NCBI GenBank assembly: GCA_021324995.1
Contig: JAJPIB010000032.1
Coordinates: forward strand, 3,671 to 67,670
Direction: 5' to 3'
Length of the DNA: 64,000 bases
Source of the DNA: Chlamydiia bacterium
GTDB taxonomy: Bacteria > Chlamydiota > Chlamydiia > Chlamydiales > Rhabdochlamydiaceae
The position numbers were made by a program, and so were the translations under genes. The notes below the pieces were generated by a model. That model was given only the letters and a program-made list of their open reading frames with translations, had not been told where the DNA came from and ran no database searches. Positions 1,174-49,661 of the stretch are shown piece after piece; positions within the stretch are counted from its first letter, which is position 1, and each line of letters begins with the position of its first letter.

Positions 1174-1202
1174 AGAAAACACTTTCGAAAAATAATTAAA
1201 AT

Positions 1203-1276
1203 TGGATTGAGCAGGACTCGAACCTGCGACCACCCGCTTAGAAGGCGGGTGCTCTATCCAGCTGAGCTATCAATCC
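1203..1276 (-). tRNA. tRNA-Arg (anticodon UCU)
   Basis: The reverse complement folds as a cloverleaf: GGATTGA/TCAATCC acceptor stem, anticodon stem CCCGC/GCGGG with loop CTTCTAA, and T-arm GCAGG-TTCGAGT-CCTGC. No CCA is encoded. Confidence 0.95.
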
Positions 1277-3414: not shown

Positions 3415-3918
3415 ATGAAAGGCGTCACAATCGATAAACTCGACATTAAAGACCATTTAAGATGGGCACAAGACCAGGAAATCTTGGATGCTGCTTTGGT
3501 CAGTGAAGCATCGCTGGTCGCACACCATCCCGAGATTCTGGGAATGTCAATGATTTACTCTTCGAAGTTTGAAGAATTGTTCGAGCTTCAAAAACGGAAT
3601 CAGCATTGGGCCTGCTTTTCGCCTCCTGAAAACTTTCAGCTTTTCAAGACGCGCTTTTTTTCCTATCGCTTATTTCCAAACATCCATTGGGAAGGTGATG
3701 AAGATAGCAAAAGCGACTCTGAAGCAAAAGAAGAAGACGGAGAATTCGAGATAGGTCTTATTTCTACCCTAGTCCAAGTTAAGGCCCCAGGCAATCAGTT
3801 CTCTGTACTTTTCGAAAAAGACAAAGACGCCTTGATCTCCCTGCTTAAATCCATCCAATGGATTAACAAACTTCTTAAACAAATCAATGGACGCAAGCTG
3901 CAATATCAAAAGGGCTAG
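3415..3918 (+). CDS. Hypothetical protein
   Basis: A 167-aa ORF lying 5 nt upstream of dapB on the same strand. No motif recognised. Confidence 0.5.
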   Translation: MKGVTIDKLDIKDHLRWAQDQEILDAALVSEASLVAHHPEILGMSMIYSSKFEELFELQKRNQHWACFSPPENFQLFKTRFFSYRLFPNIHWEGDEDSKSDSEAKEEDGEFEIGLISTLVQVKAPGNQFSVLFEKDKDALISLLKSIQWINKLLKQINGRKLQYQKG

Positions 3919-29369: not shown

Positions 29370-29374
29370 TCCGT

Positions 29375-32584: not shown

Positions 32585-34315
32585 ATGGCTGGCTATCTCA
32601 TCGCAGAGGAAGGCCCTCTCGCTGGACTTATCGTCCGGATGGAAGAGGGAGAGGAATGGATTTTAGGCAGAGACCCCGACGAAGTGACCATCGTGCTCGA
32701 AGATCCGATGGTTTCGAGGAAACATGTCATCTGCAAGCTGACTGCAGAAGGATACATTCTCGAAAATTTAAGCTCGGTCAACCCTGCGACGCAAGACGGA
32801 AAGGTGATCACCGAGCCTGTTTTGCTGCGCGAAAATGACATTTTACAAATTGGAAGCACGTTTTTCCGTTTCACCGAAAAAACGCCCTCCGATACCTTTG
32901 AGGATACTTCCATTCCTCACGAGCCCGAAATGATTGAAGAAAAAGAAGACCTCTCTTCTGTAAACGTCGAAACGACGGATGAAGTTCGCTGGTTTCTAAA
33001 AGTCATTTCCGGTCCAAATAGCGGTGCAGAATTCGCCATGCAGCGCGGGTCTACCTATATTTTGGGAAAAGACCCCAACTTATGCGACATTGTTTTTCAA
33101 GATTTGAGCGTTTCCAGGCAGCATGCCCGTCTAATTGTCGACAATGATAACGCTATTTTTATCGAAGATTTGGGCAGCCGCAACGGCGTTCTCATCAATG
33201 GTGAGCCGGTGACGGATAGGCACCCCATTTCTTCTCAGGATCTGGTCGCTTTGGGTACAACATCCTTTTTGATGCTTGACCGCGAGCAAGTCCATGAGAC
33301 TATTATTTCTCCTCCTTATATCCACCCATCCAAACCTGAAGAAGAACTCCCTGCTCCTTCCACTTCCACTGCAGAAGCTGTCATAGAAAGGAAAGACTGG
33401 CGCGAGATCATCATCCCGAAAAAACATCTCATCCTAGCCGGAGTATTTAGCCTCGCTGTCCTTGCAGGACTTGTTAGTATGATGGCTCTATTTAAATCTA
33501 ATACGATTGTTGTTCCTGTCGTCGATGAAAGTCGCACTATTCGAGAGGCTATCCCAGGATTTGAAGATGTGCAATTTTCCTATAATCCCTCGAACGGAAA
33601 AATCTTTTTAGTCGGCCATGTCCTGACTGCCGTCGACAAACAGGAGCTTCTTTACAAAATTAATAACCTTCCTTTCATCCGAAGCGTTGAAGACAATATC
33701 GTCGTCGATGAACTTGTTTGGGAAAACACAAACGCTCTATTGATGACCAATCCCAACTGGATCGGTGTTTCCGTTTACTCCCAAGTTCCGGGCAAATTCG
33801 CACTCAGAGGATATGTGCAAACCCCGGAGCAGATGCAGGCCCTCACCGATTACATCAACCTCAACTTTCCTTATCTTGATAAACTTGACAACCAGGTTGT
33901 GATCGAAACAAACTTGGAAACTCAGGTGGGAAGCATGCTTCAGGCAAGAGGATTTAGCGGGGTTACCGCTCAGATTAATAACGGGGAAATTGTTCTAGCC
34001 GGCAGAGTCGACCAGAAACAAACGCATGCTTTTTCCGAAATGGTCGATCAGATGAGAGCGCTCAAAGGCATTCGAACCGTAAAAAACTTTGTGATTTACA
34101 CTACCGCTGATACCTCGCGCATCGACATCTCCTCCCAATACAGAATCTCAGGATACTCGAAAAAAGATGACCAAAAAATGTTCATTGTGATTAATGGAAG
34201 AATCCTCAGTATTGGCGATACGATCGATGGGATGACAGTTACAGGAATTCTTCCAAATATGGTATTGCTTGAAAAAGATGGATTAAAATTTAGAATTAAC
34301 TACAATCTGCAATAA
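32585..34315 (+). CDS. sctD: T3SS inner-membrane ring protein SctD (CdsD) with two N-terminal FHA domains
   Basis: Two FHA-like units (GRDPDEVTIVLEDPMVSRKHVIC...NGT-like; GKDPNLCDIVFQDLSVSRQHARL...SRNGVLING). One TM segment (LILAGVFSLAVLAGLVSMMALF). A periplasmic C-terminal region. The position matches CT664. Confidence 0.85.
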   Translation: MAGYLIAEEGPLAGLIVRMEEGEEWILGRDPDEVTIVLEDPMVSRKHVICKLTAEGYILENLSSVNPATQDGKVITEPVLLRENDILQIGSTFFRFTEKTPSDTFEDTSIPHEPEMIEEKEDLSSVNVETTDEVRWFLKVISGPNSGAEFAMQRGSTYILGKDPNLCDIVFQDLSVSRQHARLIVDNDNAIFIEDLGSRNGVLINGEPVTDRHPISSQDLVALGTTSFLMLDREQVHETIISPPYIHPSKPEEELPAPSTSTAEAVIERKDWREIIIPKKHLILAGVFSLAVLAGLVSMMALFKSNTIVVPVVDESRTIREAIPGFEDVQFSYNPSNGKIFLVGHVLTAVDKQELLYKINNLPFIRSVEDNIVVDELVWENTNALLMTNPNWIGVSVYSQVPGKFALRGYVQTPEQMQALTDYINLNFPYLDKLDNQVVIETNLETQVGSMLQARGFSGVTAQINNGEIVLAGRVDQKQTHAFSEMVDQMRALKGIRTVKNFVIYTTADTSRIDISSQYRISGYSKKDDQKMFIVINGRILSIGDTIDGMTVTGILPNMVLLEKDGLKFRINYNLQ

Positions 34316-36400: not shown

Positions 36401-37720
36401 ATGGAACAACCTCCGGACTTTGAAAATCTCATTACCCACCTTGATGAGCTAGAACTCACTACTGTGCATGGCCGCATTACTGAAGTTGTAGGAATGCTGA
36501 TCAAAGCCGTGGTGCCTCAAGTCAAAATGGGCGAGGTAGTGGTGATCAAGCGCGATGGCGAGCCTCTAATGGCAGAGGTCGTCGGTTTTACGCGTGAAGA
36601 GGTGTATCTTTCGCCGCTGGGCGAGATGTCGGGAATTGGAACTTCTTCCGAAGTAATTCCTTTGCGCATGCCCATGCACATCAAGGTGGGCCCGGGCTTA
36701 TTAGGCCGCGTCTTAAACGGTTTGGGCAAGCCCATAGACATAGAGACAAAAGGCCCTTTGACCGATGTAGAAGAATCCTTTCCAGTCATAGGCCCCCCTC
36801 CCGATCCCCTCAAGCGAAGCTTAATTGAAGAGCCAATCTCTGTAGGAATACGCTGCATCGATGGCGTACTTACATGCGGGAAAGGACAGCGCATGGGCAT
36901 TTTTGCCGCAGCAGGCGGCGGAAAGTCTACCCTGCTCGGGATGATAGCGCGCAATGCAAAAGCCGATGTGAATGTAATCAGTTTGATCGGCGAGCGCGGA
37001 CGCGAGGTGCGCGAGTTCTTAGAGAATGATTTAGGTCCTGAAGGGATGGCGCGATCGGTGATCATTGTGTCCACCTCCGACCAAGCGGCGCAGCTCAGAA
37101 TCAACGCTGCCTATGTGGGCACAGCCATTGCTGAATATTTCCGCGAGCAGGGAAAAACCGTCATTCTAATGATGGACTCTGTCACGCGTTTTGCCCGCGC
37201 CTTACGAGAAATTGGCCTCGCTGCGGGCGAGCCTCCCGCTAGAGCTGGCTTTACTCCTTCCGTTTTTGCGACACTGCCTCGTCTTTTAGAGAGATCGGGT
37301 AATTCGGAAAAGGGATCAATGACAGCGTTTTATACCGTGCTGGTCGCAGGCGATGATATGAATGAGCCAGTTTCTGATGAAACCCGGTCCATTCTCGATG
37401 GCCATATTATTTTATCTTCCGAGCTCGCGCGCCAATACCACTACCCTGCCATCGATGTTCTCGGCTCCATCAGCCGTATTCTTTCAAATGTCGTCGATAA
37501 AGAACATCTTCAGCTGATTGGAAAAATTCGCGAAGTCCTTGCTAACTTCAAGAAAAATGAGTTGCTCATTCGCATTGGAGAATACAAGCCAGGCTCAGAT
37601 AAAGGAGCTGACTTTGCGATTAAATACATCGACAAAGTGAATCGTTTCTTAAAACAATTGGTCGATGAAAAATCAAGCTTTGAAGAAACTTTGCACCAAC
37701 TTAAAGCTTTATTTCGATGA
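36401..37720 (+). CDS. sctN: T3SS ATPase SctN (CdsN)
   Basis: Walker [18 protein letters not shown], Walker [15 protein letters not shown], and a FliI/YscN-like C-terminus. Confidence 0.95.
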
Positions 37721-38229
37721 GCGATGCCCCACATCACTATCCTCTTGAACAAATCGCAATCATCAAACAGAAAAAGTTCGATGAAGCCGAGAAAGTTCTT
37801 CGGGAAAAAAAGAAAGCTTTAGAGCTCGAAGAAGAAAAACTTATTGCTGTTGAAAAAGAACGGGATGAGGTGAAAGATCACCGCTTTGCCAAATTGACGC
37901 AGCTTCGCGAAAAAATGGATGAGGGTGCGCCATCAGATAAGATCCAACAAATGCGCTATTACCTAAAAATCGTGGATGAAAAGCTGAAATTGAAAGAGGT
38001 GAAGGTTAAAGAGCATCAAAAGCTTGTCGAAAATGCCAAGCAGCAAGTGGAAAATGCGCGCGCTGACCTTCTCAAAAAACAGCAAGATGTCGAAAAGATG
38101 CAAATCCATCGCAAGGAATGGGAGAAAGAAGTCAAAGCCATCGCAGAGCATAAAGAAGGCGTTGAATCCGATGAGATGGGATCTTCCCTCCATCAGCGCC
38201 GCAAGCAAGCCTCCAAAAAAAAACACTAG
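37717..38229 (+). CDS. sctO: T3SS stalk protein SctO (CdsO)
   Basis: A 170-aa charged coiled-coil protein. Its start overlaps the sctN stop (ATGA). The position matches CT670. Confidence 0.7.
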
Positions 38230-38350: not shown

Positions 38351-39697
38351 ATGACAGATGTGAGCAAGATCCATGGCCCTTCTGGCCCTGCAGGAGACTC
38401 GGGAAAAAAAGAAAAGTCTTCAGCAGATATGGACAAGTTCAAGGATGAAATGCGCAAGCGGGTGAACGAAGTTGGTAAAATCGACCCAGATGAGAAAAAA
38501 AAACGGAAACAGCGAGAAGAGGGCGATGAGGAAGATTTTGCAGCGCCTCAGCAGGGTACGCCGACGCCAGCTGATCAAGTCACTCCTTTTTCCCTAGAAA
38601 AAGAAGCTAAAAAAATTAGCCCAGCTGATATGCAAAAAGAAGGGCCCGGGGTTTCTCCTCTCAAAGCAGCTCAGCCGACTCCGCCTAATGCCCGACCTTC
38701 TTTCTTCCAAGCCCCTTCATCGGAAGAGCTGTCGGATGATTCTGGAATGCTTGAAGAAGAGTCGTTTCGATCTCCACCCTCGTATGGCAGTGCGCCCCAG
38801 CCCGGTGTACGACAGCAAAGTTCCTGGAATGCGGGGGCACAAAACCCGCCGATTGGACCTCCTGAGTCAAATCAGCAGTATCCCGAATCAAGACCCTCCC
38901 AACCCTCTCGGCAATCCCCTGTAGGCCCACCACAAACGCGTAAAGAAGAGCGTTTAGAGATGCCGCAAAAAATAGAGCCTCCTTCTAAACAGAGAGAATC
39001 TCAAGGGTATACCGCAGAATCTTTGAAGGATACTCAGGAACCCAAAGAGCAGGACGCTCTCTTTTTTGAACAGATGGGGAAAGACAAAGAGGGGCAAAAA
39101 AGCGAAGTAGAAGAAAAAAAATCGGAAGAAACCGAAGCGGGGAATTTTCCCATAACAGGCACCCCTTCTCCTACCCCATTTTCCGCGATCGAAGAGGAGA
39201 AAACCGAGGACAAGGATAAAATCGCCTCACCAGATGCAGCGACATTTTCTTCGGGAAGTGCTGAACCTCAGTTAGTTCCGCCAGCCGCCCCGGCTCCGGA
39301 AAGTTTGCCGCCTTACGCGCTCCTGAATCCACAAATCCAGGAAATGTTTGATCGAATGGTGGGCGTAATGACGGTCATGACTCAATCGGGGATGACAGAA
39401 ACGACCTTCACTTTAAATTCTCCGCAATTTGCTTCTTCTGTTTTTTTCGGAACTCAAATTATAATCCAGGAGTTTAGTACTGCTCCCCAAGCTTTTAATA
39501 TCCAAATCAATGGTGCTCCTCAAGCCATAGGACTGCTTCAAAATAATGCTGATGAGTTAATGGCCGCCTTTCAGGCGGGCAATTATGGCTTCCGCGTGAA
39601 TCGTTTGGAAACAGGCTATTTGGGTTCGCGCCCTCTTATCAAGCGTAAAGAAAAAGCGGAAGGGGATAAACAAGACCAAACAGGAGACAACCTTTAA
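38351..39697 (+). CDS. sctP: T3SS needle-length regulator SctP-like (CdsP), long form
   Basis: 448 aa. A Pro/Gln/Glu-rich, low-complexity N-terminal region of ~320 aa is followed by a globular C-terminal domain (FTLNSPQFASSVFFGTQIIIQEFSTAPQAFNIQING...). The position matches CT671. Confidence 0.65.
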   Translation: MTDVSKIHGPSGPAGDSGKKEKSSADMDKFKDEMRKRVNEVGKIDPDEKKKRKQREEGDEEDFAAPQQGTPTPADQVTPFSLEKEAKKISPADMQKEGPGVSPLKAAQPTPPNARPSFFQAPSSEELSDDSGMLEEESFRSPPSYGSAPQPGVRQQSSWNAGAQNPPIGPPESNQQYPESRPSQPSRQSPVGPPQTRKEERLEMPQKIEPPSKQRESQGYTAESLKDTQEPKEQDALFFEQMGKDKEGQKSEVEEKKSEETEAGNFPITGTPSPTPFSAIEEEKTEDKDKIASPDAATFSSGSAEPQLVPPAAPAPESLPPYALLNPQIQEMFDRMVGVMTVMTQSGMTETTFTLNSPQFASSVFFGTQIIIQEFSTAPQAFNIQINGAPQAIGLLQNNADELMAAFQAGNYGFRVNRLETGYLGSRPLIKRKEKAEGDKQDQTGDNL

Positions 39698-40389
39698 TGA
39701 GCATTTTATCATCCAATCCCCTGAGGAAATCTTCTCAAACAGATTCCCAGCGGACTGAAGAAAAACCGATTTGCAAGAAAGTTCCTGAAGGTCATTTCCG
39801 AGAGCACCTCCAAGGAGAACGCATTGCTGAAAAACTGCGCGAGAGGAATGTTTTTGCCATGATTGCAGAAGAGAAAGAGGAAGAATCTCAAGAGGCAGAA
39901 GAGATTGTAAACGCTGCGATTCACAGTAGCCAGGCTTGCTCAAGTTTGATCTCTTCTGCAGAATCTAGCTGTGCAAATTCTATCGCTGCAACAAGAGGAA
40001 CGGAACTTTCCTCAGAAATGGAAGCCTTATTTGAAAAAATGGCCTCTTGCATGATTGTGATGAACGCTTCGAATGATGTAGAGACCACACTTTTTCTTGA
40101 TGGCGCGAACTTTGCCTCTTCCTCGCTCTTTGGAGCGCAGATCACGATTAAAGAATTCAGTACCGCTCCAAAGGCATTCAACGTTGAAATCATTTCCAAC
40201 TCAAACGCAGCAGCAATGATTGATGCGGGGAAGGACAATCTACTTTCTCATTTTCAAAAGGGCAATTTTAACTTTAGCGTTCATCGCCTGGATACACACA
40301 TTGCCGAGCTTGGGGATAAGCCTGTTTTCCATCGAAAGGAGAGCATCGGCGATGAGCAAAAAGACTCAAGTGGAGATAGCGGCCAATGA
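39697..40389 (+). CDS. Second SctP-like protein, short form (paralogous C-terminal domain)
   Basis: 230 aa. Its C-terminal TLFLDGANFASSSLFGAQITIKEFSTAPKAFNVEIISN...GNFNFSVHRLDT aligns with the preceding ORF's C-terminal domain. Its start abuts the upstream stop. Confidence 0.55.
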   Translation: MSILSSNPLRKSSQTDSQRTEEKPICKKVPEGHFREHLQGERIAEKLRERNVFAMIAEEKEEESQEAEEIVNAAIHSSQACSSLISSAESSCANSIAATRGTELSSEMEALFEKMASCMIVMNASNDVETTLFLDGANFASSSLFGAQITIKEFSTAPKAFNVEIISNSNAAAMIDAGKDNLLSHFQKGNFNFSVHRLDTHIAELGDKPVFHRKESIGDEQKDSSGDSGQ

Positions 40390-41597
40390 ACCATGCGCCT
40401 CTTAGCTGGATTAAAGAGATCCAACATACATTGATCGATGCCAAAGCGATCCCCTTATTTGGAAATGCTCCCGATTTTCCCTGGGAAAAACTCTCCCATA
40501 AAGTCGCAGACCTTTTACATGCTTCCGAAATGAAGGTCTCTTTGTACAAAACCAGTTTTGTTAAACAGGATGATATCCTTTCAGGGCTTGGAGCCTACCC
40601 CGTTTCCATCGTTTTGCAAGCCACACCTCTGAGTGGCGCAGTTTATTGGGTGATGGGAAAAGAAGACGTCTCCGCATTGACTGCCATGGCATTAACGGAA
40701 AACCACGAAACAAAAGGGTTTTCCTCTTCTAAATTTCAAGAAGGATTTTACTACTATCTCGCTACGCAGATCGTTCAGCTGATCGATGAAATGAACGCCT
40801 TTGGCGACCTATCGATTAAAATCGCAAAGCCTGCCCTCCCCTCGCAAGAAGATGCGCTTTGCATGGATATTGAAATTCAAATCCATAAGCACAAATGCTG
40901 GGGAAGACTCGTCTGCCCAGCTTCTTTTCATGAAGCTTTTAGATCCCATTTCTACTCTCAGACTCCCTCCTTGCTGACGCGCAACAGTGCTAAAAAAATG
41001 GATGTTACTGTCGGCATCGAGCTAGGACATACTGAACTTTCCGTTTCAGAGTGGAAGAAAGTGGGCATTGGAGATTTTATCCTTCTCGACAGATGCACCT
41101 TTGATCCCACGACAAAAAAAGGAACAGCAGCCCTCACGCTGGAAGGTACCCCCCTTATGCGCGTTAGGATCAAAGACAATAGTTTAAAAATTATCGATTA
41201 CGCTTTTTATCGCGAGGAACAAAACCCTATGAATCCCGAAATACCCCCAGATGAAGAAGGACACAACGCACATATGGAATCCGAGGACTTTTCTTCTGCT
41301 GAATTCGACGATGAAAACTCTGATCATCAGGGTGAACATCTTTGGTCGCCAGAAAATGGCGGTGCGGAAAAGCTGATCTCTTCTAAGGAGATCCCGCTAA
41401 CTTTGACTGTAGAGGTAGCGAGAATGCGCATCAATCTCGAAAAGCTAACGCAGTTGTCTCCTGGGAATGTCTTGGAGTTGCCGGTTCGCCCTGAACATGG
41501 GGTCGATATTGTGATCGGTGGCAAAAAAGTAGCAAAAGCAGAGCTTGTCAAGCTCGGCGAAATGTTAGGTATAAAAATCCTGCAGCTTGGGGATTAA
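40386..41597 (+). CDS. sctQ: T3SS cytoplasmic ring / sorting platform protein SctQ (CdsQ)
   Basis: C-terminal SpoA/FliN domain (LTLTVEVARMRINLEKLTQLSPGNVLELPV...DIVIGGKKVAKAELVKLGEMLGIKI). 403 aa. Confidence 0.85.
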   Translation: MNHAPLSWIKEIQHTLIDAKAIPLFGNAPDFPWEKLSHKVADLLHASEMKVSLYKTSFVKQDDILSGLGAYPVSIVLQATPLSGAVYWVMGKEDVSALTAMALTENHETKGFSSSKFQEGFYYYLATQIVQLIDEMNAFGDLSIKIAKPALPSQEDALCMDIEIQIHKHKCWGRLVCPASFHEAFRSHFYSQTPSLLTRNSAKKMDVTVGIELGHTELSVSEWKKVGIGDFILLDRCTFDPTTKKGTAALTLEGTPLMRVRIKDNSLKIIDYAFYREEQNPMNPEIPPDEEGHNAHMESEDFSSAEFDDENSDHQGEHLWSPENGGAEKLISSKEIPLTLTVEVARMRINLEKLTQLSPGNVLELPVRPEHGVDIVIGGKKVAKAELVKLGEMLGIKILQLGD

Positions 41598-41605
41598 CTC
41601 CTTTT

Positions 41606-43201
41606 ATGGCGGAGAGTTCATTTTATAAACAAAACACCATGCCGGATTTGATCACGGGAGAAAAAGATCCTGAACTCCCTCCCATGATCGGCCCTTATAA
41701 AATTGAATGCCTTTTAACAAAAGGAGGAATGAGTCTTTTATATCTCGGTCTTGATCCCGAAACAAAAAAAACCTTAGCCATCAAAGTTCTATCTCCCTCT
41801 CATGTCGCCCACCCTGAAGTCGTGCGGCAGTTTCTGCAAGAAGCTAAAGTCATCGCTCTGACTAACCATCCCAATATTGTTAAACTTTACGGTCAAGGTG
41901 AATGGGAAAAAGGTCTTTACATCGCGATGGAGCTCATCCAAGGTATCTCCCTGAGACAATTTATTCTGCAGCACTCCCTCTCGATCAGAAGAACTCTAGA
42001 AATTGTCCTTCAAGTCGCTTACGCTCTCCTCCATCTCCATTCGCATGGCGTGATTCATCGCGATCTTAAGCCAGAAAACATTTTGATTACCGAAGAAGGT
42101 GAAATCAAAGTCATCGACTTTGGAATTGCACAGCTCCACGAAGAAAGGGAAAAAAAATCAGACATATCCCGTTTTTTAGGAACTCCTAATTACATGAGCC
42201 CCGAGCAAAAAGAGAATCCCTCCTCTGTAACATTTGCATCCGACATCTATTCTCTCGGCGTCATCCTCTATGAGCTTATTTCTGGAAAGCTGAGTTATGG
42301 AATGATCAATATGACAGCTTTTCCAAAGGGGTTGAAAAAAATAGCTTCTAAAGCCCTCGCTGTCTCCGTCGAAGAGCGCTACCAAAATATCTCAGAATTT
42401 ATTCAGGATATCTCGCATTACTTGACCTCCAAAGATCTCGACAAGGAGCGCCCAGGTGGAGACCAAGCTAAAGAATTGATGGAAAAGGTTCTCAAGGCAA
42501 ATCTTGACCTCTCTCCTCTCGTCTTGCCCCTTTGGCCCCAAATGGATTTAGGGATTGCCAGAGGAAGGGGCTTGCAACAGTTGGGACTCTATTACGACCT
42601 TTTCCGCTTTCCAAACAACACATTCCTCGTCGTGCTGGCAAGCCTTGCTAATCCTGCCATCGAATCCGCAGTAGCAGTCGGCGTTCTTCGCGGGATGATC
42701 AAAATGTCCCTTAACGATCAGATCCATTCCGCCAAATCACCGTTTAAGCTGATTCCCTTTGTGGAAAAGTTGAATGCCCTCCTCTGCGAAGATTCCATGG
42801 GCAACAAATTTGCTGTCAGCCTATTGCTCCTTGACCCCATTGCAGATACAGCCACTTATCTCTCCTGCGGCTTTGGCGATCTCATTCACATCCCTGAAGG
42901 ACAAGTCCACCTGCGCAAACTCTCTTCCCAAAACGAGCTTTTGGGAACATCGACAGCCGTCGAATTTTCCTCAACAACGGACAACTGGAATCCCGGCGAC
43001 ATACTTATTCTTCACACCCTGAGCGCACTTTCCCCTAGCAAGGAAGAGCTCGACACCTCCTTAGCAGAGGCCATTTCTGAAAATTTACTTCTCTCAGCAC
43101 AAAGACAAGCGGAAACAATTCTTAAAAAAGTCTCCTTCTCGCCCGCCTATTCCCGCATCACTTATCCAAAGACCGTACTCTCTATCCAGCGCATCGTTTA
43201 A
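41606..43201 (+). CDS. pkn5: Ser/Thr protein kinase Pkn5-position gene, fused to a degenerate PP2C/SpoIIE-like domain
   Basis: Kinase motifs LAIKVL, HRDLKPENILI, DFGIA and GTPNYMSPE. The C-terminal ~230 aa has a SpoIIE-like layout (YYDLF...FLVVLASL..., FAVSLLLLD...YLSCGFGDLIHI, NPGDILILHT). Confidence 0.85.
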   Translation: MAESSFYKQNTMPDLITGEKDPELPPMIGPYKIECLLTKGGMSLLYLGLDPETKKTLAIKVLSPSHVAHPEVVRQFLQEAKVIALTNHPNIVKLYGQGEWEKGLYIAMELIQGISLRQFILQHSLSIRRTLEIVLQVAYALLHLHSHGVIHRDLKPENILITEEGEIKVIDFGIAQLHEEREKKSDISRFLGTPNYMSPEQKENPSSVTFASDIYSLGVILYELISGKLSYGMINMTAFPKGLKKIASKALAVSVEERYQNISEFIQDISHYLTSKDLDKERPGGDQAKELMEKVLKANLDLSPLVLPLWPQMDLGIARGRGLQQLGLYYDLFRFPNNTFLVVLASLANPAIESAVAVGVLRGMIKMSLNDQIHSAKSPFKLIPFVEKLNALLCEDSMGNKFAVSLLLLDPIADTATYLSCGFGDLIHIPEGQVHLRKLSSQNELLGTSTAVEFSSTTDNWNPGDILILHTLSALSPSKEELDTSLAEAISENLLLSAQRQAETILKKVSFSPAYSRITYPKTVLSIQRIV

Positions 43202-44183
43202 TGATTGTTATCACTAAAGCTTTATTTCCACTGAAATAATCGCAGTTATCTGGAACTTCCAGCACAATTTCCTCTTCGTGAAAATCGAGATAAGGATTAG
43301 CGATAATTTCGCTCACAAATCGATCATCCTCATATTTAGATGTCGGACTGCTCAAGAAGCAGGAAAAGCGCGATCCATTGCGCATGTGCGACTTCAAGCA
43401 TTCGCTTAAAAAAAGATATAAACGATCACCTTTGTCGGAAAACACAAACGGTTCTTCGGCTTTTTTAAAAAGCGCATTTACTTCCTTTTCGCTCAACATC
43501 TCTTCTTTCACAAGAAAGTCGATTTTACTTTTAAGCTGTTCAGCTGTGATTTGACCGCGCTGGGAAAGCTCGCTTAAGAACCGAGCTAACTGCATCGCCT
43601 CTGTCTTTTCTTTCAGAGGAACCTCTTTCATGAGGTAGGCGAGATCGTCATCGGAATACTTGATTTCTTTCAAAAAAGGAACCGCCTCTTCTGCAGCTCG
43701 AATGACCGAGCCTCCTTGTTGCAGGACAAGATGAGAATGTGCGCTATCTTCTTGCATTTTTTGCATTTCTTCTTCGCTTTGCAACGGATAATCGTCGAAG
43801 AAAATACAATCGAATATACCCAGCTTCGGCAATGCGTTCTGCCATGTCTCTTCAATGATTGTCACATTAGGATAGTTTTTCGCCCATTCCCTTGCTTTTT
43901 TGGCCACTTCAGGATGGAATTCGATGATCGTATGACTTTTTGGATGAAAACTCTGAATGCGCTCTGCGGAATAGGCCAGGCCAAAGCCCACTTCTAATAC
44001 ATCGCCAAAAGGTTTCAGTGCATCGATACAAGCGTGCATATAAGGTTTTTCCCATTCCATCATCACCTGGAATTTCCCATCCTTAAGCAATACTTCTTTT
44101 CCTTGCTCGTCTCTACAGTAATGCATCTTACAGTGTAAAAAATCTTGGGCCATGTGGTGAAACTCCCGTTTACAATAATCCAA
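43182..44183 (-). CDS. Class I SAM-dependent methyltransferase, GAMT/RMT2-like
   Basis: MMEWEKPYMHACIDAL...GDVLEVGFGLAYSAERIQ...IIEFHP...FDCIFFDDYP and C-terminal LEVPDNCDYFSGNKALVITIIK resemble guanidinoacetate N-methyltransferase. A helical insertion of ~100 aa is present. Confidence 0.7.
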   Translation of the reverse strand: MDYCKREFHHMAQDFLHCKMHYCRDEQGKEVLLKDGKFQVMMEWEKPYMHACIDALKPFGDVLEVGFGLAYSAERIQSFHPKSHTIIEFHPEVAKKAREWAKNYPNVTIIEETWQNALPKLGIFDCIFFDDYPLQSEEEMQKMQEDSAHSHLVLQQGGSVIRAAEEAVPFLKEIKYSDDDLAYLMKEVPLKEKTEAMQLARFLSELSQRGQITAEQLKSKIDFLVKEEMLSEKEVNALFKKAEEPFVFSDKGDRLYLFLSECLKSHMRNGSRFSCFLSSPTSKYEDDRFVSEIIANPYLDFHEEEIVLEVPDNCDYFSGNKALVITIIKRCAG

Positions 44184-44332: not shown

Positions 44333-47300
44333 ATGCAACAATTTCGGAAGCGCTACTGGTATAAAGTTGCCCTGTGTGCATCCTACATTCCACTGATCTA
44401 CTCACCCATTGCCTACACAGCGAATGTCGAGGGAAAATTTATTGAAGCAGCTATCCCGTCAAGTATCGACGTTGATAAGGATACTTACACCGCCAATTTC
44501 AATAACCTCTCGATTATTGAGTTCATCCGTTTTGCGAGCAAAATCACCGGATTGAATTTTGTTTTTCAAGAAGCTGACCTCCAATTCACAGTGACAATCT
44601 TCTCCGAAGAGCCTGTGACTGCAAAGAATATGATGACCGTTCTTTCTCAAGTATTGCGCACCCACAATTTAATTTTACTCGAACAAGACGGCAATGTTCT
44701 AATCACGACAAGCACGAATGTCAACCAAATACCCACCATTGTTTCGGCGGATCTTCCTGAATCACGCGCCGGTAATGCTGCACTCATCACGCGCATTTTT
44801 AGAATCAAAAATGCCAATGTCAATTCGATCGCCAACATTATTCGACCAATGACATCGCAAGGTGCTTTGATCGAAGTTTCCGTTGAAACACGGCAACTTA
44901 TCGTTACTGATATCACTACAAATGTCGAACAAATCGCCATTTTGCTCGGCAGCTTGGATGCCCCGCACACGCCCCTTGACGTCGATACCTACATCGTGCG
45001 CAATATTTCTCCACAGGATTTAATTCAACTTACTCAGCAGATTCTAAATCCCTTCGCCGAAGGCAACCCTCTCATTTTCGTTCCTCAAGCAGAAACGAAC
45101 TCCATCTACATTGTTTCAACACCCTATCTGATTGATCGCGCAATGACGGTGATGGAGGATCTCGATATTCCAACAAAACCTGTTCAAATTGGAAAACCTG
45201 CACTGACTGGCAAGGATATTTTCATTTACAAGCCGATTTATCTCTCTGCTTCCGACTTGCTCGAAGAACTGGCTCAAATTGCTTCCCAGCTAAAAAAAAC
45301 GGGGGGAGCGCGGTCAGATCTTGAAATGGCCATCGATGACGCTACGGAAGTTAAAGATACAGGTTCGGTGATGTTTGTTGCTGATACGCAAACAACGGTA
45401 AAGATTAAAGATATCCTTGCAGCAATCGACAACAACCCCTATATCACCCATGGTGGCGAGCGTTCAAAATCCACATTCTTAGCCTATCAGCCTGTTTATC
45501 GCTCGGGAGAAGAACTTGTGACAGAACTGAACGATTTAGAAAAAAGCCTTAAACAATCTGGACTGGCAAATCCACTTTTGCTTGCGACCTTAGATTCGAT
45601 GAAATGGGTGGCGACAGCAGAAACTCTGATTTTTACTGGAGACCCTCAATCCATTGAGCGTATTCAGGGGATTTTAAAATCGATGGATGCGCCAACGCCC
45701 TATGTGAAATCCTCCCAGATCTTCATCTACAAACCGCTTTACAATGCCCATGATCAGATCCTGATCGCGCTTAATGCCCTGATTCCTGCCCTTCAAAAGA
45801 CCAACACAATGGCGGATGATAATTTGATAGCAGCGATCAAAGAAATGCAATGGAATTCCGAGACACAATCCTTTCTGATCATTTCGGATCCGGCTTCCAT
45901 TGAGCGCCTTAAAGAGCTATTTGCTTCGATTGACGCACCTATTCAGGGGATGGGTCCCGGACCCAAAGAATTTTACGTGTATAAGCTTGAGCATGCCCAG
46001 TGTGAGGCTCTGCTTACCGAATTGAAAAGCGTTGCAAAAAAAATGCCTGTCAACTCTCTTCAAGGGCAAAATCTCATAGCAGCAATTGAACGCATTGAAT
46101 GCATCCAGTCTAACAATTCCCTGCTCATTACAGGAACAACTGAGATCATCGACCAGATCAAAACGCTTATCACCGAGTTCGACTCCAGTTCAGCAACAGG
46201 GATTTCTGCTGGCGCTCATTCTTTCTTGATCTACAAACCTAAATACCTGCCCGCATCGCAAATCCAAACAGCGCTGACAGATTTATCCAGCGATCTAGCT
46301 GCATCTGGGCTCAATGATCCGCAGCTTTTTAGGACGATCGATACCATGCGGTACGTCGAACAGACAAATTCGCTCATCTTTACGGGAACGCAGGAAGGAC
46401 TCGATAAAACGCAAAACCTCATCAATACCATCGATACGAGCGCAGCGCTAGGCTCGATCCAAAACATTGGCAATATCACTTTCTTCCTATACAAAGTCCA
46501 ATCAGCCTCCCCCGATAAACTTGTCCATTCACTCAAAAATTTTGCGGCAGATTTAAAACAATCCAATATTGAGGACAAACATCTCGCTGAAGCTATCAAC
46601 ACGGTAAAATGGATTAAAGAAACGAATTCCTTAATGTTCACAGGGACTCCCGATGCCCTTGAGAAAATAGAACAACTTGTCAAAAAGTTCGATTTACCCT
46701 CCTTAGGTGGCCCAACACAAATCGAGCGCGCCGCCCCCGTCTTTACGATTTATAACCCCAAATATGTCGATGGCGATGAGCTCATTTCCATTCTCTGCGA
46801 TTTCATGGAAAACCTCATGTCCTCCGGCGTCTCCGACCCAGGGCTATTCGATACGATCAACAATTTGAAATGGATCGCCAAAACCTCGTCTCTGCTAGTT
46901 TCAGGCGATCAAGCCTCAGTCGACAAGGTACAGCAACTTCTCGTCAAATTCGATATTCCTAACAAGGACATTGCAACACCATCTATCGAATCGATCGACA
47001 ACACCAGCTTCCTCGTTTACAAGCTGCAATTCCACCCCGGCAATGACATCCAAAGAGCGCTCCAGCAAGTGGCGACAAGCCTTAGCAAAGGAGGCAATTC
47101 ACCTGTAGCCCTCGTCGATGCCATCCATTCGCTGCAATGGATCCAAGTGACTAACTCCCTTCTCTGCTCCGGTCAGCAAGATGTGCTTGTCAAATTGAAA
47201 GAACTGATCCAAAACCTCGATGTTCCCTTGCGCCAGGTATTCATTGAAGTCCTTGTCATCCAGACAACCCTCACCAACCAACAGAACTTTGGCTTGATGT

Positions 47301-48190
47301 GGGGTGGACAGGTAAAATACCTTAACAAAACGATCTTGCAATCCGGCAACTTCCCCTTAAGCAACAGCCAGGGCAGCTCAACTCCTACCGCTGCAACGCA
47401 GTTCCCCACCAACCTTCAAGGAATCAATGCGACGACAACGCCTACAAACACCAGCATTCCCTTTTCCACAGGCTTTGACTTGGGAGTCATCGGCGACATC
47501 ATCATGCACAAGGGCAAGTCCTTCATCTCTTTGGGCTCATTGCTCAACGCCATTCAGCTCGACACCGATTCCACAGTCATCCTAAATCCCAAGATCATCA
47601 CTCAGGACAACCGCCAGTCAACGATCTTCGTCGGACAAAACGTCCCCTACACAGGCGCGCTGATTACCAGCACTACATCCAGCCAGACGCAAACAGCGAA
47701 CATCGAATACCGCGATGTCGGCGTCAGCCTGACGATCACACCCATTCTAGGCGATGGGGATGTCATTACCATGGACATCGTCCATGATATCTCTCAATTG
47801 CTCAATGGTCAAAACGTCACGACTTCTAGTCAGCAAGTCAACGGTATTCAAACTAGCCACGCGCACATGGAGACGCGCGTCCACGTGCCAAACAACCATT
47901 TCGTCGCATTAAGCGGAATGATCAACGACCAAAAGACGCATTACCGCACTGCAATTCCCTGCCTCGGAGGGCTACCCGTCATTGGCGCGCTATTCAGCGA
48001 GAATGACAGACAGGCGCAAAAAGGCAACATCATTATCTTTGTCCGTCCGCAAATCGTAAATACTTACGCGGAATACAAAGCCATTACCGAACACCAGGAA
48101 TGGCTATACAAGGATAACGCGAGACTGCCCGTTCTTAAAGAAGAATTTGATGAGGGAATTGATATGGTAAAACTTCCGGAAAATGAATAA
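44333..48190 (+). CDS. sctC: T3SS outer-membrane secretin SctC (CdsC), giant form with 8 tandem periplasmic modules
   Basis: N0 (NFNNLSIIEFIRFASKITGLNFVFQE), two N-type domains, eight ~84-aa repeats, then a secretin domain (ANIEYRDVGVSLTITP, IPCLGGLPVIGALF, IIIFVRPQIV). The position after pkn5 matches CT674. Confidence 0.9.
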   Translation: MQQFRKRYWYKVALCASYIPLIYSPIAYTANVEGKFIEAAIPSSIDVDKDTYTANFNNLSIIEFIRFASKITGLNFVFQEADLQFTVTIFSEEPVTAKNMMTVLSQVLRTHNLILLEQDGNVLITTSTNVNQIPTIVSADLPESRAGNAALITRIFRIKNANVNSIANIIRPMTSQGALIEVSVETRQLIVTDITTNVEQIAILLGSLDAPHTPLDVDTYIVRNISPQDLIQLTQQILNPFAEGNPLIFVPQAETNSIYIVSTPYLIDRAMTVMEDLDIPTKPVQIGKPALTGKDIFIYKPIYLSASDLLEELAQIASQLKKTGGARSDLEMAIDDATEVKDTGSVMFVADTQTTVKIKDILAAIDNNPYITHGGERSKSTFLAYQPVYRSGEELVTELNDLEKSLKQSGLANPLLLATLDSMKWVATAETLIFTGDPQSIERIQGILKSMDAPTPYVKSSQIFIYKPLYNAHDQILIALNALIPALQKTNTMADDNLIAAIKEMQWNSETQSFLIISDPASIERLKELFASIDAPIQGMGPGPKEFYVYKLEHAQCEALLTELKSVAKKMPVNSLQGQNLIAAIERIECIQSNNSLLITGTTEIIDQIKTLITEFDSSSATGISAGAHSFLIYKPKYLPASQIQTALTDLSSDLAASGLNDPQLFRTIDTMRYVEQTNSLIFTGTQEGLDKTQNLINTIDTSAALGSIQNIGNITFFLYKVQSASPDKLVHSLKNFAADLKQSNIEDKHLAEAINTVKWIKETNSLMFTGTPDALEKIEQLVKKFDLPSLGGPTQIERAAPVFTIYNPKYVDGDELISILCDFMENLMSSGVSDPGLFDTINNLKWIAKTSSLLVSGDQASVDKVQQLLVKFDIPNKDIATPSIESIDNTSFLVYKLQFHPGNDIQRALQQVATSLSKGGNSPVALVDAIHSLQWIQVTNSLLCSGQQDVLVKLKELIQNLDVPLRQVFIEVLVIQTTLTNQQNFGLMWGGQVKYLNKTILQSGNFPLSNSQGSSTPTAATQFPTNLQGINATTTPTNTSIPFSTGFDLGVIGDIIMHKGKSFISLGSLLNAIQLDTDSTVILNPKIITQDNRQSTIFVGQNVPYTGALITSTTSSQTQTANIEYRDVGVSLTITPILGDGDVITMDIVHDISQLLNGQNVTTSSQQVNGIQTSHAHMETRVHVPNNHFVALSGMINDQKTHYRTAIPCLGGLPVIGALFSENDRQAQKGNIIIFVRPQIVNTYAEYKAITEHQEWLYKDNARLPVLKEEFDEGIDMVKLPENE

Positions 48191-48225: not shown

Positions 48226-48870
48226 ATGCACTCTTCTATCAAAGTTGTGCTTTTTGATCACGATGACACTCTCGTGCGTACAATTAAGGTTAAGTGGGCA
48301 CAACACAAGTACATTGCACAAACATTCTATGGTAAAAAACTCAGCAACAAAGAATTGCGCCAGCATTGGGGAAAGCCGCTTACTCTCTTAATGAAACTCT
48401 TGTATGAAACGGATAATCTCGACATGGCGATGTCCTATAACATTGCTACTAGAAATAAATTTCCTAAATATCTCTTCAAAAACACAATAAAAACTTTAAG
48501 CACTCTTCGCAGATCAGGAAAAAAAGTAGGAATTGTTTCTTCAACGGCCCGATGGAGTTTGCAGTACGATTTTCTTACTTTAAACATCCCGGGCCAATTA
48601 TTTGACTACATTCAAACTGAAGAAGACACCCCATTTCATAAACCGAATCCTCACGTGTTTGCTCCTTTTTTAGAATGGCTAGAAAAAGAAAATATTCAAC
48701 GAAATGAAGTTTTATACGTGGGAGACCACCTCAATGATATGGTTGCAGCACAAGAGGCTGGTTTTGATTTTGTTGGAGTAGGGACGGGCTTGATCTCCGT
48801 CAAAGAATTTCAAGAGCATCATGCAGACGCTATTCCTGAACTCGCTCACATCCTTAAAAGAATCAGATAG
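48226..48870 (+). CDS. HAD-superfamily hydrolase (subfamily IA-like), paralog 1
   Basis: Motif I VLFDHDDTLV, motif II VSST, motif IV VGDHLNDMVAAQEAG. Confidence 0.8.
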   Translation: MHSSIKVVLFDHDDTLVRTIKVKWAQHKYIAQTFYGKKLSNKELRQHWGKPLTLLMKLLYETDNLDMAMSYNIATRNKFPKYLFKNTIKTLSTLRRSGKKVGIVSSTARWSLQYDFLTLNIPGQLFDYIQTEEDTPFHKPNPHVFAPFLEWLEKENIQRNEVLYVGDHLNDMVAAQEAGFDFVGVGTGLISVKEFQEHHADAIPELAHILKRIR

Positions 48871-48947: not shown

Positions 48948-49661
48948 ATGTATCACCCCATGCAACCCATTAGCCCATCGATCAAGTTAGTCTTATTCGA
49001 TCACAACGATACTTTAGTTGGTTCCATCAAGTCAAAATGGGCACAGCATAAATTCATCGCCAAAACGTTTTACGACAAAAAACTAACCGATGCAGAGATA
49101 CGGCTTCACTGGGGAAAACCATTTACCGTCTTGTTGAAACATTTATATGGAACCGACCACATCGATATGGCGATGTGCTACAATATCGCTACGCGGAGTA
49201 AATTTCCCAAAATCCTCTTTAGGGATACCATCAAAACGCTTAGAGCACTCCGTAAATCAGGTAAAAAGGTGGGACTTGTCACAGCTACAACGCGATCTAG
49301 CTTGAATCATGATTTTCAAACCCTTAAAATTTCTGAACAACTCTTTGATTTTATCCAGACTGAAGACGATACCATCTATCACAAGCCAGACCCGCGCGTA
49401 CTCGAACCTGTTTTAAAATGGATCGCAGAGCAACAAATCCAACCGGAGGAAGTCTTATGCGTCGGAGATCAACTGATCGATATGACCATCGCACAGGAAG
49501 TGGGTTTTGGATTTGTCGGCGTCAGCACAGGCCTTGTCTCGGTTGAAGAATTCGAGCAACATCAAGTCAAAGGAGTTTCTCGTGTGGGTCATTTAATTAT
49601 ACCGAAAATGATCCAAAAATCGATTTTAGGTGCGCCTGCATCCCAGACTTTCGATCTGTAA
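48948..49661 (+). CDS. HAD-superfamily hydrolase, paralog 2, with its C-terminus replaced by a MITE insertion
   Basis: Same motifs (VLFDHNDTLV, VTAT, VGDQLIDMTIAQEVG). The last 20 codons ([20 protein letters not shown]) are encoded by the subfamily B element. Confidence 0.75.
   Translation: MYHPMQPISPSIKLVLFDHNDTLVGSIKSKWAQHKFIAKTFYDKKLTDAEIRLHWGKPFTVLLKHLYGTDHIDMAMCYNIATRSKFPKILFRDTIKTLRALRKSGKKVGLVTATTRSSLNHDFQTLKISEQLFDFIQTEDDTIYHKPDPRVLEPVLKWIAEQQIQPEEVLCVGDQLIDMTIAQEVGFGFVGVSTGLVSVEEFEQHQVKGVSRVGHLIIPKMIQKSILGAPASQTFDL

Follow-up and report, generated by a model that had tools for sequence, protein, structure and literature searches.

A GspD-type secretin with eight tandem N-domain modules in the type III secretion locus of an environmental chlamydia

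RESULTS AND DISCUSSION

A giant secretin in a conserved type III secretion locus

We analyzed a 64,000-nucleotide stretch of contig JAJPIB010000032.1 from a member of the Rhabdochlamydiaceae (here, the window), which encodes components of a type III secretion system (T3SS) together with two secretins of very different size (Table 1). The larger gene lies 3' of cdsQ and pkn5 in a cdsN-cdsO-cdsP-cdsQ cluster of the nonflagellar T3SS kind, the position of CdsC, with one methyltransferase gene intervening. The order CdsN-CdsO-CdsP-like-CdsQ-Pkn5-secretin is also that of Chlamydia and recurs in many related genomes, and because of this conserved synteny we assign the giant secretin to the T3SS. A preliminary description of the same DNA had placed it there as well, and its association with CdsD, CdsN, CdsO, CdsQ, and Pkn5 extends to many genomes. 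Its closest named relatives are from the Rhabdochlamydiaceae.

TABLE 1 Features discussed in the text, with positions numbered from the first nucleotide of the window
Feature	Position	Strand	Basis and remarks
Short secretin paralog, 540 aa	1379-3001	-	Pfam; signal peptide, N0, one module, secretin domain
CdsD/SctD inner-membrane ring protein, 576 aa	32585-34315	+	Pfam Yop-YscD_cpl, FHA, CdsD_PD1, CdsD_PD2, CdsD_C
CdsN ATPase	36401-37720	+	Pfam ATP-synt_ab and T3SS_ATPase_C
CdsO stalk	37717-38229	+	YscO-like
Long ruler-like ORF, 448 aa	38351-39697	+	CdsP/SctP position between CdsO and CdsQ
Short ruler-like paralog, 230 aa	39697-40389	+	Homology to C terminus of the 448-aa ORF
CdsQ C-ring protein	40386-41597	+	Pfam FliMN_C
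Pkn5-like Ser/Thr kinase	41606-43201	+	Pfam Pkinase and SpoIIE
Methyltransferase gene	43182-44183	opposite	Between Pkn5 and giant secretin
Giant secretin ORF	44333-48190	+	ATG start, 1285 aa, uninterrupted
Predicted Sec signal peptide	44333-44419	+	aa 1-29, MQQFRKRYWYKVALCASYIPLIYSPIAYT; hydrophobic N terminus in translation; cleavage site approximate
N0-N1-N2 region	44477-45214	+	aa ~49-294; Pfam type_II_gspD_N0, phmmer
Modules M1-M4	45215-46219	+	aa 295-380, 381-461, 462-545, 546-629; module HMM E 1e-32 to 1e-34 each
Modules M5-M8	46220-47254	+	aa 630-715, 716-802, 803-891, 892-974; module HMM E 1e-34 to 1e-36
Secretin domain (outer-membrane double barrel)	47255-48112	+	aa ~975-1260; Pfam PF00263
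C-terminal tail and stop codon	48113-48190	+	aa 1261-1285; 65% mean identity across orthologs

Domain layout and predicted fold of the modules

The giant secretin consists of a signal peptide, an N0-N1-N2 region, eight Secretin_N modules in series, and a secretin barrel. Pfam identifies the elements of the secretin superfamily in their usual order, with N0 (PF21305, type_II_gspD_N0) at aa 55 to 122, Secretin_N (PF03958) in 8 separate stretches (E 1.6e-57), and Secretin (PF00263) at aa 1075 to 1242 (E 5.7e-36). In phmmer searches, aa 49 to 281 align to the N0-N1-N2 crystal structures of XcpQ/GspD (4e9j, 5ngi, and 3ezj) and aa 938 to 1254 to GspD/XcpQ cryo-EM chains, the secretin domain aligning also with GspD, PilQ, and InvG chains; the Pfam and phmmer results bear out the earlier reading that an N0/N1/N2 region and a secretin domain flank the array. 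The N0-N1-N2 region is expected to dock on the inner-membrane rings, and M8, adjoining the secretin domain, is the N3 equivalent. A putative S-domain-like pilotin or stabilizing segment in the C-terminal tail is speculative. Together, N0 and 10 Secretin_N-type domains (N1, N2, and M1 to M8) make eleven periplasmic domains, so that well over four N-type domains stand in series.

A profile HMM that we built from the eight module boundaries of the preliminary description recovers eight full-length copies at those same boundaries (i-Evalue 1e-32 to 1e-36 each), confirming the eight tandem modules reported for this 1285-aa ORF, and gives weak partial matches in N1 and N2 as well. The modules recur with a period of 81 to 89 aa (typically ~84 aa), and their alignment displays the motif that had been written for them, F.IYKP.Y ... 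L..L..SG..D..L...I..M.W...TNSL.FTG ... I..L....D. Pairwise identity between modules is 19 to 37% (maximum 38% under another aligner). At the DNA level, direct repeats do not exceed 24 nt, and a tandem array is absent. Collapse or expansion of repeats during assembly is therefore not an issue, as had been argued from the divergence of the copies, and the array is old.

AlphaFold2 models of monomeric M1-M4 (mean pLDDT 81.8) and M6-M8 (pLDDT 78.4) predict a beta-alpha-alpha-beta-beta-alpha fold for each module, joined by linkers of 10 to 20 aa with pLDDT <50; geometry between modules in these monomer runs is arbitrary (global TM about 0.2). The best Foldseek matches, at probability 1.00, are N-domains of type II secretion system (T2SS) secretins for M1-M4 (E 2e-8) and N-domains of ExeD, EpsD, GspD, XcpQ (N0-N2), and InvG for M6-M8, and injectisome entries (7ah9, 6q14, 5tcr, and 3gr5) are also among the matches. 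Every module is thus predicted to have the secretin N-domain fold, and Pfam Secretin_N matches and these monomer structure comparisons agree with the earlier proposal that the modules are copies of N-type ring domains.

The short secretin paralog carries a single module, at aa 158 to 239 (module HMM, E 2.3e-27), which the preliminary description had also noticed; Pfam and the module HMM detect no N1, N2, or array in it. It matches M8 plus the secretin domain of the giant secretin at 51% identity over 387 aa (E 6e-130). Its conserved neighbors are a DUF5399 gene and a large ORF that matches no Pfam family; no T2SS genes lie near it.

Module number varies widely among environmental chlamydiae

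Relatives of the giant secretin are present in 337 species-level genomes and carry 5 to 23 modules, most commonly 8 or 9. The range is 5 to 18 among the best 120 homologs and 5 to 21 in 80 species genomes, with the maximum of 23 found among 50%-identity representatives. Homolog length is quantized in steps of about 84 aa, the family spanning 1,030 to 2,370 aa and up to 26 periplasmic domains. It is widespread among environmental chlamydiae, the Rhabdochlamydiaceae and Simkaniaceae included; cultured Rhabdochlamydia, for example, has 7 modules. Multiplication to between 5 and 23 modules is therefore normal in these organisms; the protein had been presented as exceptional, but its eight modules lie near the mode. 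The preliminary description had also weighed the possibility that this length is universal and already characterized. The first part largely holds, but the second does not: our literature searches returned no paper describing such module arrays, and in the literature searched the family is annotated only generically. One 15-module homolog (P0067) is not adjacent to T3SS genes.

Gains and losses of modules map to the N-proximal and central part of the array (M1 to M4), and the order M5-M6-M7-M8 is kept in nearly all architectures. Across 59 eight-module orthologs, identity is 66% in N0, 66% in N1, and 58% in N2, falls to 35 to 40% in M1-M4, and rises through 51 to 52% in M5-M6 (M5, 52%) to 62% in M7 and 70% in M8, with 62% in the secretin barrel. 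The conservation profile of the array is spacer-like, strong at both ends and weak in the center.

Module number covaries with a ruler-like ORF

In the published gene order, CT670 (CdsO) and CT671 (CdsP) precede CdsQ (PMC3574062), and CT671 has been described as a needle-length ruler (PMC5040114). Two ORFs of the window occupy this SctP position between sctO and sctQ, and the C terminus of the longer one is 41% identical to the shorter over 124 aa. Neither has a Pfam match or a PDB profile match. The 230-aa ORF reaches the YscP model TIGR02514 (type_III_yscP) at E 0.034 and 14 bits, below the 76.5-bit cutoff, and 3 of 19 orthologous C-terminal domains match it weakly (E ≤ 1). On the strength of position and these subthreshold matches, the 448-aa ORF is likely a ruler.

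The CdsP-position ORF is 528 to 670 aa long at loci with at least 11 modules (n = 6) and 263 to 516 aa at loci with 9 or fewer (n = 26). These ranges do not overlap (n = 32; Mann-Whitney p 1e-6), a pattern that we noticed post hoc, that is carried by the six high-module loci, and that mixes our own ORF calls with gene-caller lengths. Length and module number are correlated (Pearson r 0.74), with a slope of 23.6 ± 3.9 aa per module (n = 32, kinship ignored). The high-module loci fall in at least three clades, each beside a low-module neighbor with a short ruler, and control lengths are flat (CdsQ, 399 to 425 aa; Pkn5, 528 to 536 aa), as is that of the short ruler paralog (205 to 275 aa whatever the module number). 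Within the range of 5 to 9 modules there is no correlation with ruler length (rho -0.07), and the CdsO-CdsQ gap, a crude proxy, bears no relation to module number. The ruler of Yersinia, YscP, measures about 1.9 Å per residue. At that value the slope corresponds to 2.4 to 4.5 nm for each added module, about as much as a single N-domain ring is tall. That module number rises as the likely ruler lengthens suggests that these injection machines are unusually long. It also supports the view that the modules are spacer rings arranged in series, by which the basal body is lengthened; the consequences for the ruler foreseen in the preliminary description gain support accordingly.

A probable stacked array of spacer rings and its alternatives

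We consider it probable that the giant secretin is the SctC/CdsC of the T3SS injectisome of an environmental chlamydia, that it is a GspD-type secretin in which an N3-like periplasmic domain has been multiplied, and, as a whole, that the modules form a stacked array of spacer rings. Secretins oligomerize into 12- to 15-mer ring channels in the outer membrane; each module would likewise form a ring, as N1 to N3 do in solved secretins, and the rings would stack in series from the end docking on the inner-membrane rings (N0-N2) to the gate-proximal end (M7, M8, and the barrel). The central modules would act as spacers setting the height of the periplasmic conduit, and a longer tunnel for needle and rod would require a ruler that lengthens with the array. 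Scaled from Thermus PilQ, eleven periplasmic domains would give a conduit of roughly 45 to 55 nm; the whole basal body of C. trachomatis measures 34 nm (PMC4682100). We propose more tentatively, and with something short of even confidence, that module number (5 to 23) sets basal-body height stepwise, with a co-tuned ruler and conduits of ~40 to >100 nm, which would be the longest secretin channels known. An array of 21 to 23 modules, if fully stacked, would measure about 100 nm and so would be hard to fit into periplasms of ordinary width.

The modules could instead lie in series without forming a rigid stack. Flexible linkers would make the array an extensible tether, folding like an accordion, with which the basal body could follow a periplasm that varies in width or is widened locally (in elementary as against reticulate bodies, or on host contact), and module number would set a maximum reach and not a fixed height. 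We judge this unlikely. In its favor, the C. trachomatis basal body shortens from 34 to 29 nm upon contact with the host, a plasticity that the authors credit to the linked periplasmic domains of the secretin and CdsD (PMC4682100), and the periplasm of that species, ~14 nm wide, reaches ~29 nm at the T3SS pole (PMC4336559). The low-pLDDT linkers point the same way, and the absence of a ruler correlation at 5 to 9 modules would fit slack in the system, but solved secretin N-domains form ordered rings, and the covariation with the ruler seen when modules are many suggests that the added length is put to use. Tether and spacer rings overlap and are not mutually exclusive.

It is less probable still, and in our view doubtful, that the modules, folded back or packed sideways into a second wall or collar, or docking envelope layers, peptidoglycan, or partner proteins, leave conduit length unchanged. 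Arrays of 18 to 23 modules would be implausibly long if fully extended, the central modules are poorly conserved, and the five-layered envelope characteristic of arthropod-associated Rhabdochlamydia might need anchoring (PMC9723776), all of which would suit such a role. However, in the chain the modules come after N0-N2 and before the barrel and are hence in series, the only domain type detected is the ring-forming N-domain fold, and covariation with the ruler-like ORF is not something that a collar or dock predicts.

Sequence class is the point on which a type II GspD might be argued for. The giant secretin passes the NCBIfam GspD model TIGR02517 (380.1 bits against a cutoff of 351.35), falls far below the cutoffs of the canonical SctC models TIGR02516 (98.4 versus 238.45 bits) and NF011873 (53.2 versus 524), and has T2SS GspD chains as its best PDB sequence matches. 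By sequence it is thus a GspD-type and not an SctC-type secretin, a point missing from the preliminary description. However, all chlamydial nonflagellar T3SSs use a T2SS-like secretin (PMC3459982), a published pattern with which its GspD-like, non-YscC-like secretin domain agrees and which CdsC shares. No gspE, gspF, or gspG lies near the gene, whose neighbors are CdsN, CdsO, CdsQ, Pkn5, and CdsD, and its place downstream of CdsN-CdsO-CdsP-like-CdsQ-Pkn5 is repeated in many genomes, making a role in type II secretion very improbable. That the array is an assembly or annotation artifact, such as a misjoined repeat or fused ORFs, is scarcely credible: adjacent modules 95 to 96% identical in two very long homologs (P0122 and P0037) mean that copy number could be misassembled there, but here DNA repeats are ≤24 nt, modules are ≤38% identical, the ORF is uninterrupted, and the eight-module form occurs in dozens of independent assemblies, complete chromosomes included.

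Significance

The architecture of the injectisome basal bodies solved so far hardly varies, against which the giant secretin family is much larger and modular. Should the modules be spacer rings in a stack, the injectisomes of these organisms would exceed the height of imaged ones by as much as severalfold, with implications for envelope architecture and a wide or multilayered periplasm. The ruler covariation would then indicate, from comparative data, that the length of the ruler follows that of the basal body as well as the exposed needle. Stepwise height, if true, would provide a natural length series for the matching of ruler, rod, and needle to basal-body size.

Comparison with known secretins

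The nearest counterpart is C. trachomatis CdsC (CT674), which likewise follows CdsQ and Pkn5, has a T2SS-like secretin domain and not one of YscC/InvG type (PMC3459982), and belongs to an elongated, flexible basal body (PMC4682100), a trait that the giant secretin would share. Both proteins are much larger than other T3SS secretins. CdsC is, as had been stated, the shorter of the two (921 aa). Insertions and a hydrophilic N-terminal domain of ~250 residues, described as unique, account for its extra mass (PMC4682100). Compared with that description, the giant secretin owes its own extra mass to seven more Secretin_N modules, placed after N2 and before the last N-domain. No Chlamydiaceae-type ~250-residue hydrophilic domain precedes N0, which begins at aa ~49 to 55, right after the signal peptide.

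For N0-N2, every module, and the barrel alike, sequence and structure comparisons match best to GspD/XcpQ/PulD (N0-N1-N2-N3-secretin). GspD has three N-type domains after N0, where the giant secretin has ten, and the gene of the giant secretin lies among T3SS genes and not T2SS genes. InvG, YscC, and EscC play the same role in the machine and share the N-domain fold by Foldseek, but they are 560 to 610 aa long, contain N0, N1, and N3 only, and have a different evolutionary origin (PMC3459982).

Thermus thermophilus PilQ also has unusually many beta-alpha-beta-beta-alpha N-domains in one secretin. Its six stacked rings, N0 to N5, form a 350-Å cylinder spanning a wide periplasm (PMC5745081), which corrects the earlier view that secretins carry two to four N-type domains. 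Six rings and the secretin domain occupy 35 nm in this 757-aa protein, called "one of the largest" characterized (PMC5745081). PilQ is, by analogy, a functional precedent for the spacer idea, although it serves type IV pili and DNA uptake with six rings, whereas the giant secretin has eleven periplasmic domains and an injectisome context, and the giant secretin family displays a copy-number series of a kind not reported for PilQ.

Architecture of the giant secretin

The giant secretin is encoded by an uninterrupted ORF and carries eight tandem modules (M1 to M8) between its N-terminal periplasmic domains (N0-N1-N2) and its C-terminal secretin domain, here called the barrel. A profile HMM built on the eight module boundaries of the preliminary description recovers eight full-length copies (E-values of 1e-32 to 1e-36 each) with a period of 81 to 89 aa, gives weak partial matches to N1 and N2, and finds a single copy in the short secretin; it was used in place of a whole-protein self-BLASTP, which returned the identity match only. 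The modules share 19 to 37% pairwise identity (maximum 38% with a different aligner), and the DNA of the gene contains no repeat longer than 24 nt and no tandem array. Given this divergence at both levels, we reject an assembly artefact as the source of the array in the window and conclude that it is ancient and that all of its module copies are old. The preliminary description of both secretins thus stands in full as regards the ORF, the module boundaries, their divergence, and the lone module of the short protein.

Features of the window and of one related locus discussed in the text
Feature	Location	Strand	Length	Remarks
Large ORF beside short secretin	~1-1268			Minus strand; no Pfam match; runs off window start
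Short secretin	1379-3001	-	540 aa	
DUF5399 protein	3415-3918	+		
Three-ORF block	26935-31015	+	476, 300 and 554 aa	First two without Pfam match, then Ser/Thr kinase-domain protein
CdsD	32585-34315	+	576 aa	
Long ruler-like ORF	38351-39697	+	448 aa	
Short ruler paralog	39697-40389	+	230 aa	
Methyltransferase-like gene	43182-44183	-		Between pkn5 and giant secretin; 20-nt overlap with pkn5 end
Giant secretin	44333-48190	+	1285 aa	
N0 domain, giant secretin	aa 55-122			Pfam
Secretin_N (PF03958), giant secretin	Eight separate stretches			Pfam; combined E-value 1.6e-57
M1-M8, giant secretin	Start aa 295, 381, 462, 546, 630, 716, 803, 892			Module profile
Secretin domain, giant secretin	aa 1075-1242			Pfam; C-terminal
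HAD-type hydrolase	48226-48870	+		Tandem paralog, 3' of giant secretin
HAD-type hydrolase	48948-49661	+		Tandem paralog, 3' of giant secretin
525-aa protein	L084 8079-9656		525 aa	Upstream of P0067
P0067, homologous secretin	L084 10001-15469			15 modules

Residues 49 to 281 can be aligned with crystal structures of N0-N1-N2 from XcpQ and GspD. We modeled M1-M4 and M6-M8 in AlphaFold2 with ortholog alignments (mean pLDDT 81.8 and 78.4, respectively), and each module was predicted to adopt a beta-alpha-alpha-beta-beta-alpha fold, with short low-confidence linkers in between. Both models matched the N-domains of type II secretion system (T2SS) secretins in Foldseek searches of the PDB (ExeD, EpsD, GspD, XcpQ N0-N2, and Deinococcus radiodurans DR_0774), followed by the type III (T3SS) secretin InvG, with probability 1.00 and E-values down to 2e-8. 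Global TM-scores were low (~0.2), as expected for a monomer model, in which the modules, like beads on a string, may point in any direction relative to one another. These models agree with the N-type fold proposed for the modules beforehand, and since that fold is predicted for every module, the giant secretin is predicted to comprise N0 plus ten N-type domains (N1, N2, and M1-M8). M8, adjoining the barrel, is the counterpart of N3.

A GspD-type secretin in a T3SS locus

By sequence the giant secretin is of GspD type, scoring 380 bits against TIGR02517 (cut-off 351) versus 98 bits (cut-off 238) and 53 bits (cut-off 524) against two SctC models. Upstream of it lie genes for CdsD, a CT668/FliE-like protein, CdsN, CdsO, two ORFs in the position of CdsP, CdsQ, and a Pkn5-like kinase; this is a chlamydial T3SS cluster, and the same gene order precedes a multi-module secretin in many other genomes. 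The conflict between sequence and locus is only apparent because all chlamydial nonflagellar T3SSs recruited a T2SS-like secretin (Abby and Rocha, PMC3459982). On this context and its recurrence we reject a T2SS GspD and retain the earlier assignment to the T3SS.

Several neighboring genes deserve mention. The three-ORF block just upstream of the T3SS cluster, which includes a second Ser/Thr kinase, may encode effectors or accessory proteins. A methyltransferase similar to that in the window occupies the matching place in a related locus (L085), and many related loci have a ~316-aa ORF and YidD after the secretin instead of the HAD-type hydrolases. No T3SS genes adjoin the 15-module homolog P0067; upstream of it are a glycosyltransferase block and a protein with weak Pfam matches to N0 and Secretin_N plus an intimin/invasin-type beta-domain (IAT_beta). 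C. trachomatis CdsD is considerably longer than the window protein, and on that comparison the inner-membrane ring protein would be shorter in the window and the secretin longer.

Across M8 and the barrel the short secretin shares 51% identity with the giant one, of which it is a close paralog; it has no N1, no N2, and no array. Its DUF5399 and large-ORF neighborhood is conserved in another locus (L082), and no T2SS genes are adjacent to it. Short one-module paralogs form ~25 representative clusters.

Distribution and evolution of the array

When one genome per species was scanned, relatives turned up in 337. All of the top 80 are MAGs of environmental Chlamydiota (Rhabdochlamydiaceae, Simkaniaceae, and Parachlamydiales) carrying 5 to 21 modules, most commonly 8 or 9; the 120 best homologs are 1,032 to 2,050 aa long with 5 to 18 modules, their length quantized by ~84 aa. 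Exhaustive HMMER searching of 1.84 billion representatives yielded ~95 clusters (50% identity) with at least 5 modules, the largest member having 23 modules in 2,368 aa. Rhabdochlamydia proteins of the P0078/P0081 type have 7 modules, and a truncated copy from a Simkania negevensis MAG (L054) has 8. The nearest protein is 89% identical, the nearest species genome 70%, and the nearest named cluster is [quoted passage not shown] The protein had been put forward as an outlier, which this distribution does not bear out: it is an ordinary member of an uncharacterized family. Among L001 to L080, many of the near genomes were submitted under the names Verrucomicrobia or Verrucomicrobiae, and individual ones as Acidobacteria or, in the case of L064 (secretin of 6 modules, 1,136 aa), as "Chlamydia trachomatis." All of these seem to be environmental Chlamydiota MAGs filed under the wrong taxon.

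We assigned the modules of ~200 homologs to their best match among M1-M8 of the window. The last four (5-6-7-8) keep their position in almost all homologs, and gains and losses fall in the stretch from M1 to M5. Nine modules in the order 1-6-2-3-4-5-6-7-8 are the most frequent architecture, and the 1-8 order of the window ranks second. Regional identity over 59 eight-module orthologs was 58 to 66% for N0-N2, 35 to 40% for M1-M4, 51 to 52% for M5-M6, 62% for M7, 70% for M8, and 62% for the barrel. Judged from sequence conservation, both ends of the protein are constrained and the middle of the array seems to behave like a spacer. Adjacent N-proximal modules are up to 95 to 96% identical in two homologs, P0122 (the 21-module secretin of locus L073) and P0037 (18 modules), so expansion by recent tandem duplication is ongoing in these lineages, although their copy number may be unreliable in short-read assemblies.

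Covariation with the ruler-like protein

In Chlamydia, CdsP (CT671) sits between CdsO and CdsQ (PMC3574062) and is considered the ruler of needle length (PMC5040114). The two adjacent ORFs in this position in the window share a C-terminal domain of ~120 aa (41% identity) that matches the YscP model below threshold and whose profile retrieved nothing in Pfam and nothing credible in the PDB; the short paralog is missing from some loci. A first, crude proxy for ruler length, the CdsO-CdsQ nucleotide gap, did not correlate with module number (rho 0.04). Because the gap spans either one ORF or two and depends on where tblastn HSPs end, we turned instead to the length of the ORF bearing the conserved domain and added four high-module loci with gene context (total n = 32); the other four of eight high-module look-ups (P0067, P0102, P0104, and P0119) had no upstream T3SS genes or no upstream sequence and were left out.

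The long ruler-like ORF, with lengths taken from two calling methods, measured 670 aa at 21 modules, 614 aa at 15, 589, 562, and 555 aa at 12, and 528 aa at 11, versus 263 to 516 aa (median, 409) in 26 loci with 5 to 9 modules. Lengths in the two groups are fully separated (Mann-Whitney p 1e-6), and ruler length rises with module number (Pearson r 0.74; Spearman rho 0.46, p 0.008; slope, 23.6 ± 3.9 aa per module), a pattern noticed post hoc on six high-module loci and with statistics that ignore kinship. The high-module loci fall in at least 3 clades of a neighbor-joining tree of M8 plus the barrel, each beside a relative with few modules and a short ruler (in one such pair, 15 modules and 614 aa versus 8 modules and 414 aa). 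Control proteins were flat across module numbers (CdsQ, 399 to 425 aa; Pkn5, 528 to 536 aa), as was the short ruler paralog (205 to 275 aa), and across genomes only the long ORF scales. The consequence foreseen for the ruler is plausible. Inside the 5 to 9 module range there is no trend. At ~1.9 Å per residue, as in the Yersinia ruler, the slope corresponds to ~2.4 to 4.5 nm per module, which is roughly as tall as a single N-domain ring.

Possible function of the array

We lean toward the view that the modules would form stacked rings that determine how tall the periplasmic conduit is, by analogy with N1-N3 of solved secretins. Each module would build a ring, and one ring would sit on the next between a conserved docking end, where N0-N2 would contact the inner-membrane rings, and a conserved gate end, where M7, M8, and the barrel would form the gate and pore; conduit height would then be set by the variable central modules. 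If the modules lengthen the conduit, a longer needle and rod, and hence a longer ruler protein, would be expected. Scaled from Thermus PilQ, eleven periplasmic domains would give the window secretin a length of roughly 45 to 55 nm, against 34 nm for the entire basal body of C. trachomatis (PMC4682100).

The main rival, which is compatible with stacked rings, is that the modules act as an extensible tether, which would fit the flexible linkers between them and the fact that the basal body of C. trachomatis is known to contract from 34 to 29 nm (PMC4682100). Less likely, the modules fold back or pack laterally, which would remove the implausible ~100 nm implied at 21 to 23 modules but is at odds with the ruler covariation. 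A possible reason for such reach is the thick five-layered envelope reported for arthropod-associated Rhabdochlamydia (PMC9723776); the arrays are not limited to its family and occur in others too. The array varies at the level of the family, and its covariation with the ruler opens the stacked-ring hypothesis to a direct test by cryo-ET, a method that Pilhofer et al. are said to have applied to environmental chlamydiae in 2014.

Comparison with characterized secretins

Secretins average 555 ± 151 aa (PMC4827864), and the precedents named in the preliminary description, with two to four ring domains, were incomplete. Searches of the open-access literature, where absence is no proof, turned up no account of chlamydial secretins with Secretin_N modules in tandem. 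P0251, a 931-aa homolog with an N-terminal extension, was discarded as a Chlamydiaceae comparison, being an unplaced metagenomic protein adjoining a Fic gene. The C. trachomatis secretin CdsC, compared by its description only, differs in that its extra mass has been ascribed to a unique N-terminal domain of 250 residues rather than to an array (PMC4682100). Relative to characterized secretins, what is new here is a GspD-type secretin that serves a T3SS and carries an N-domain array of variable copy number.
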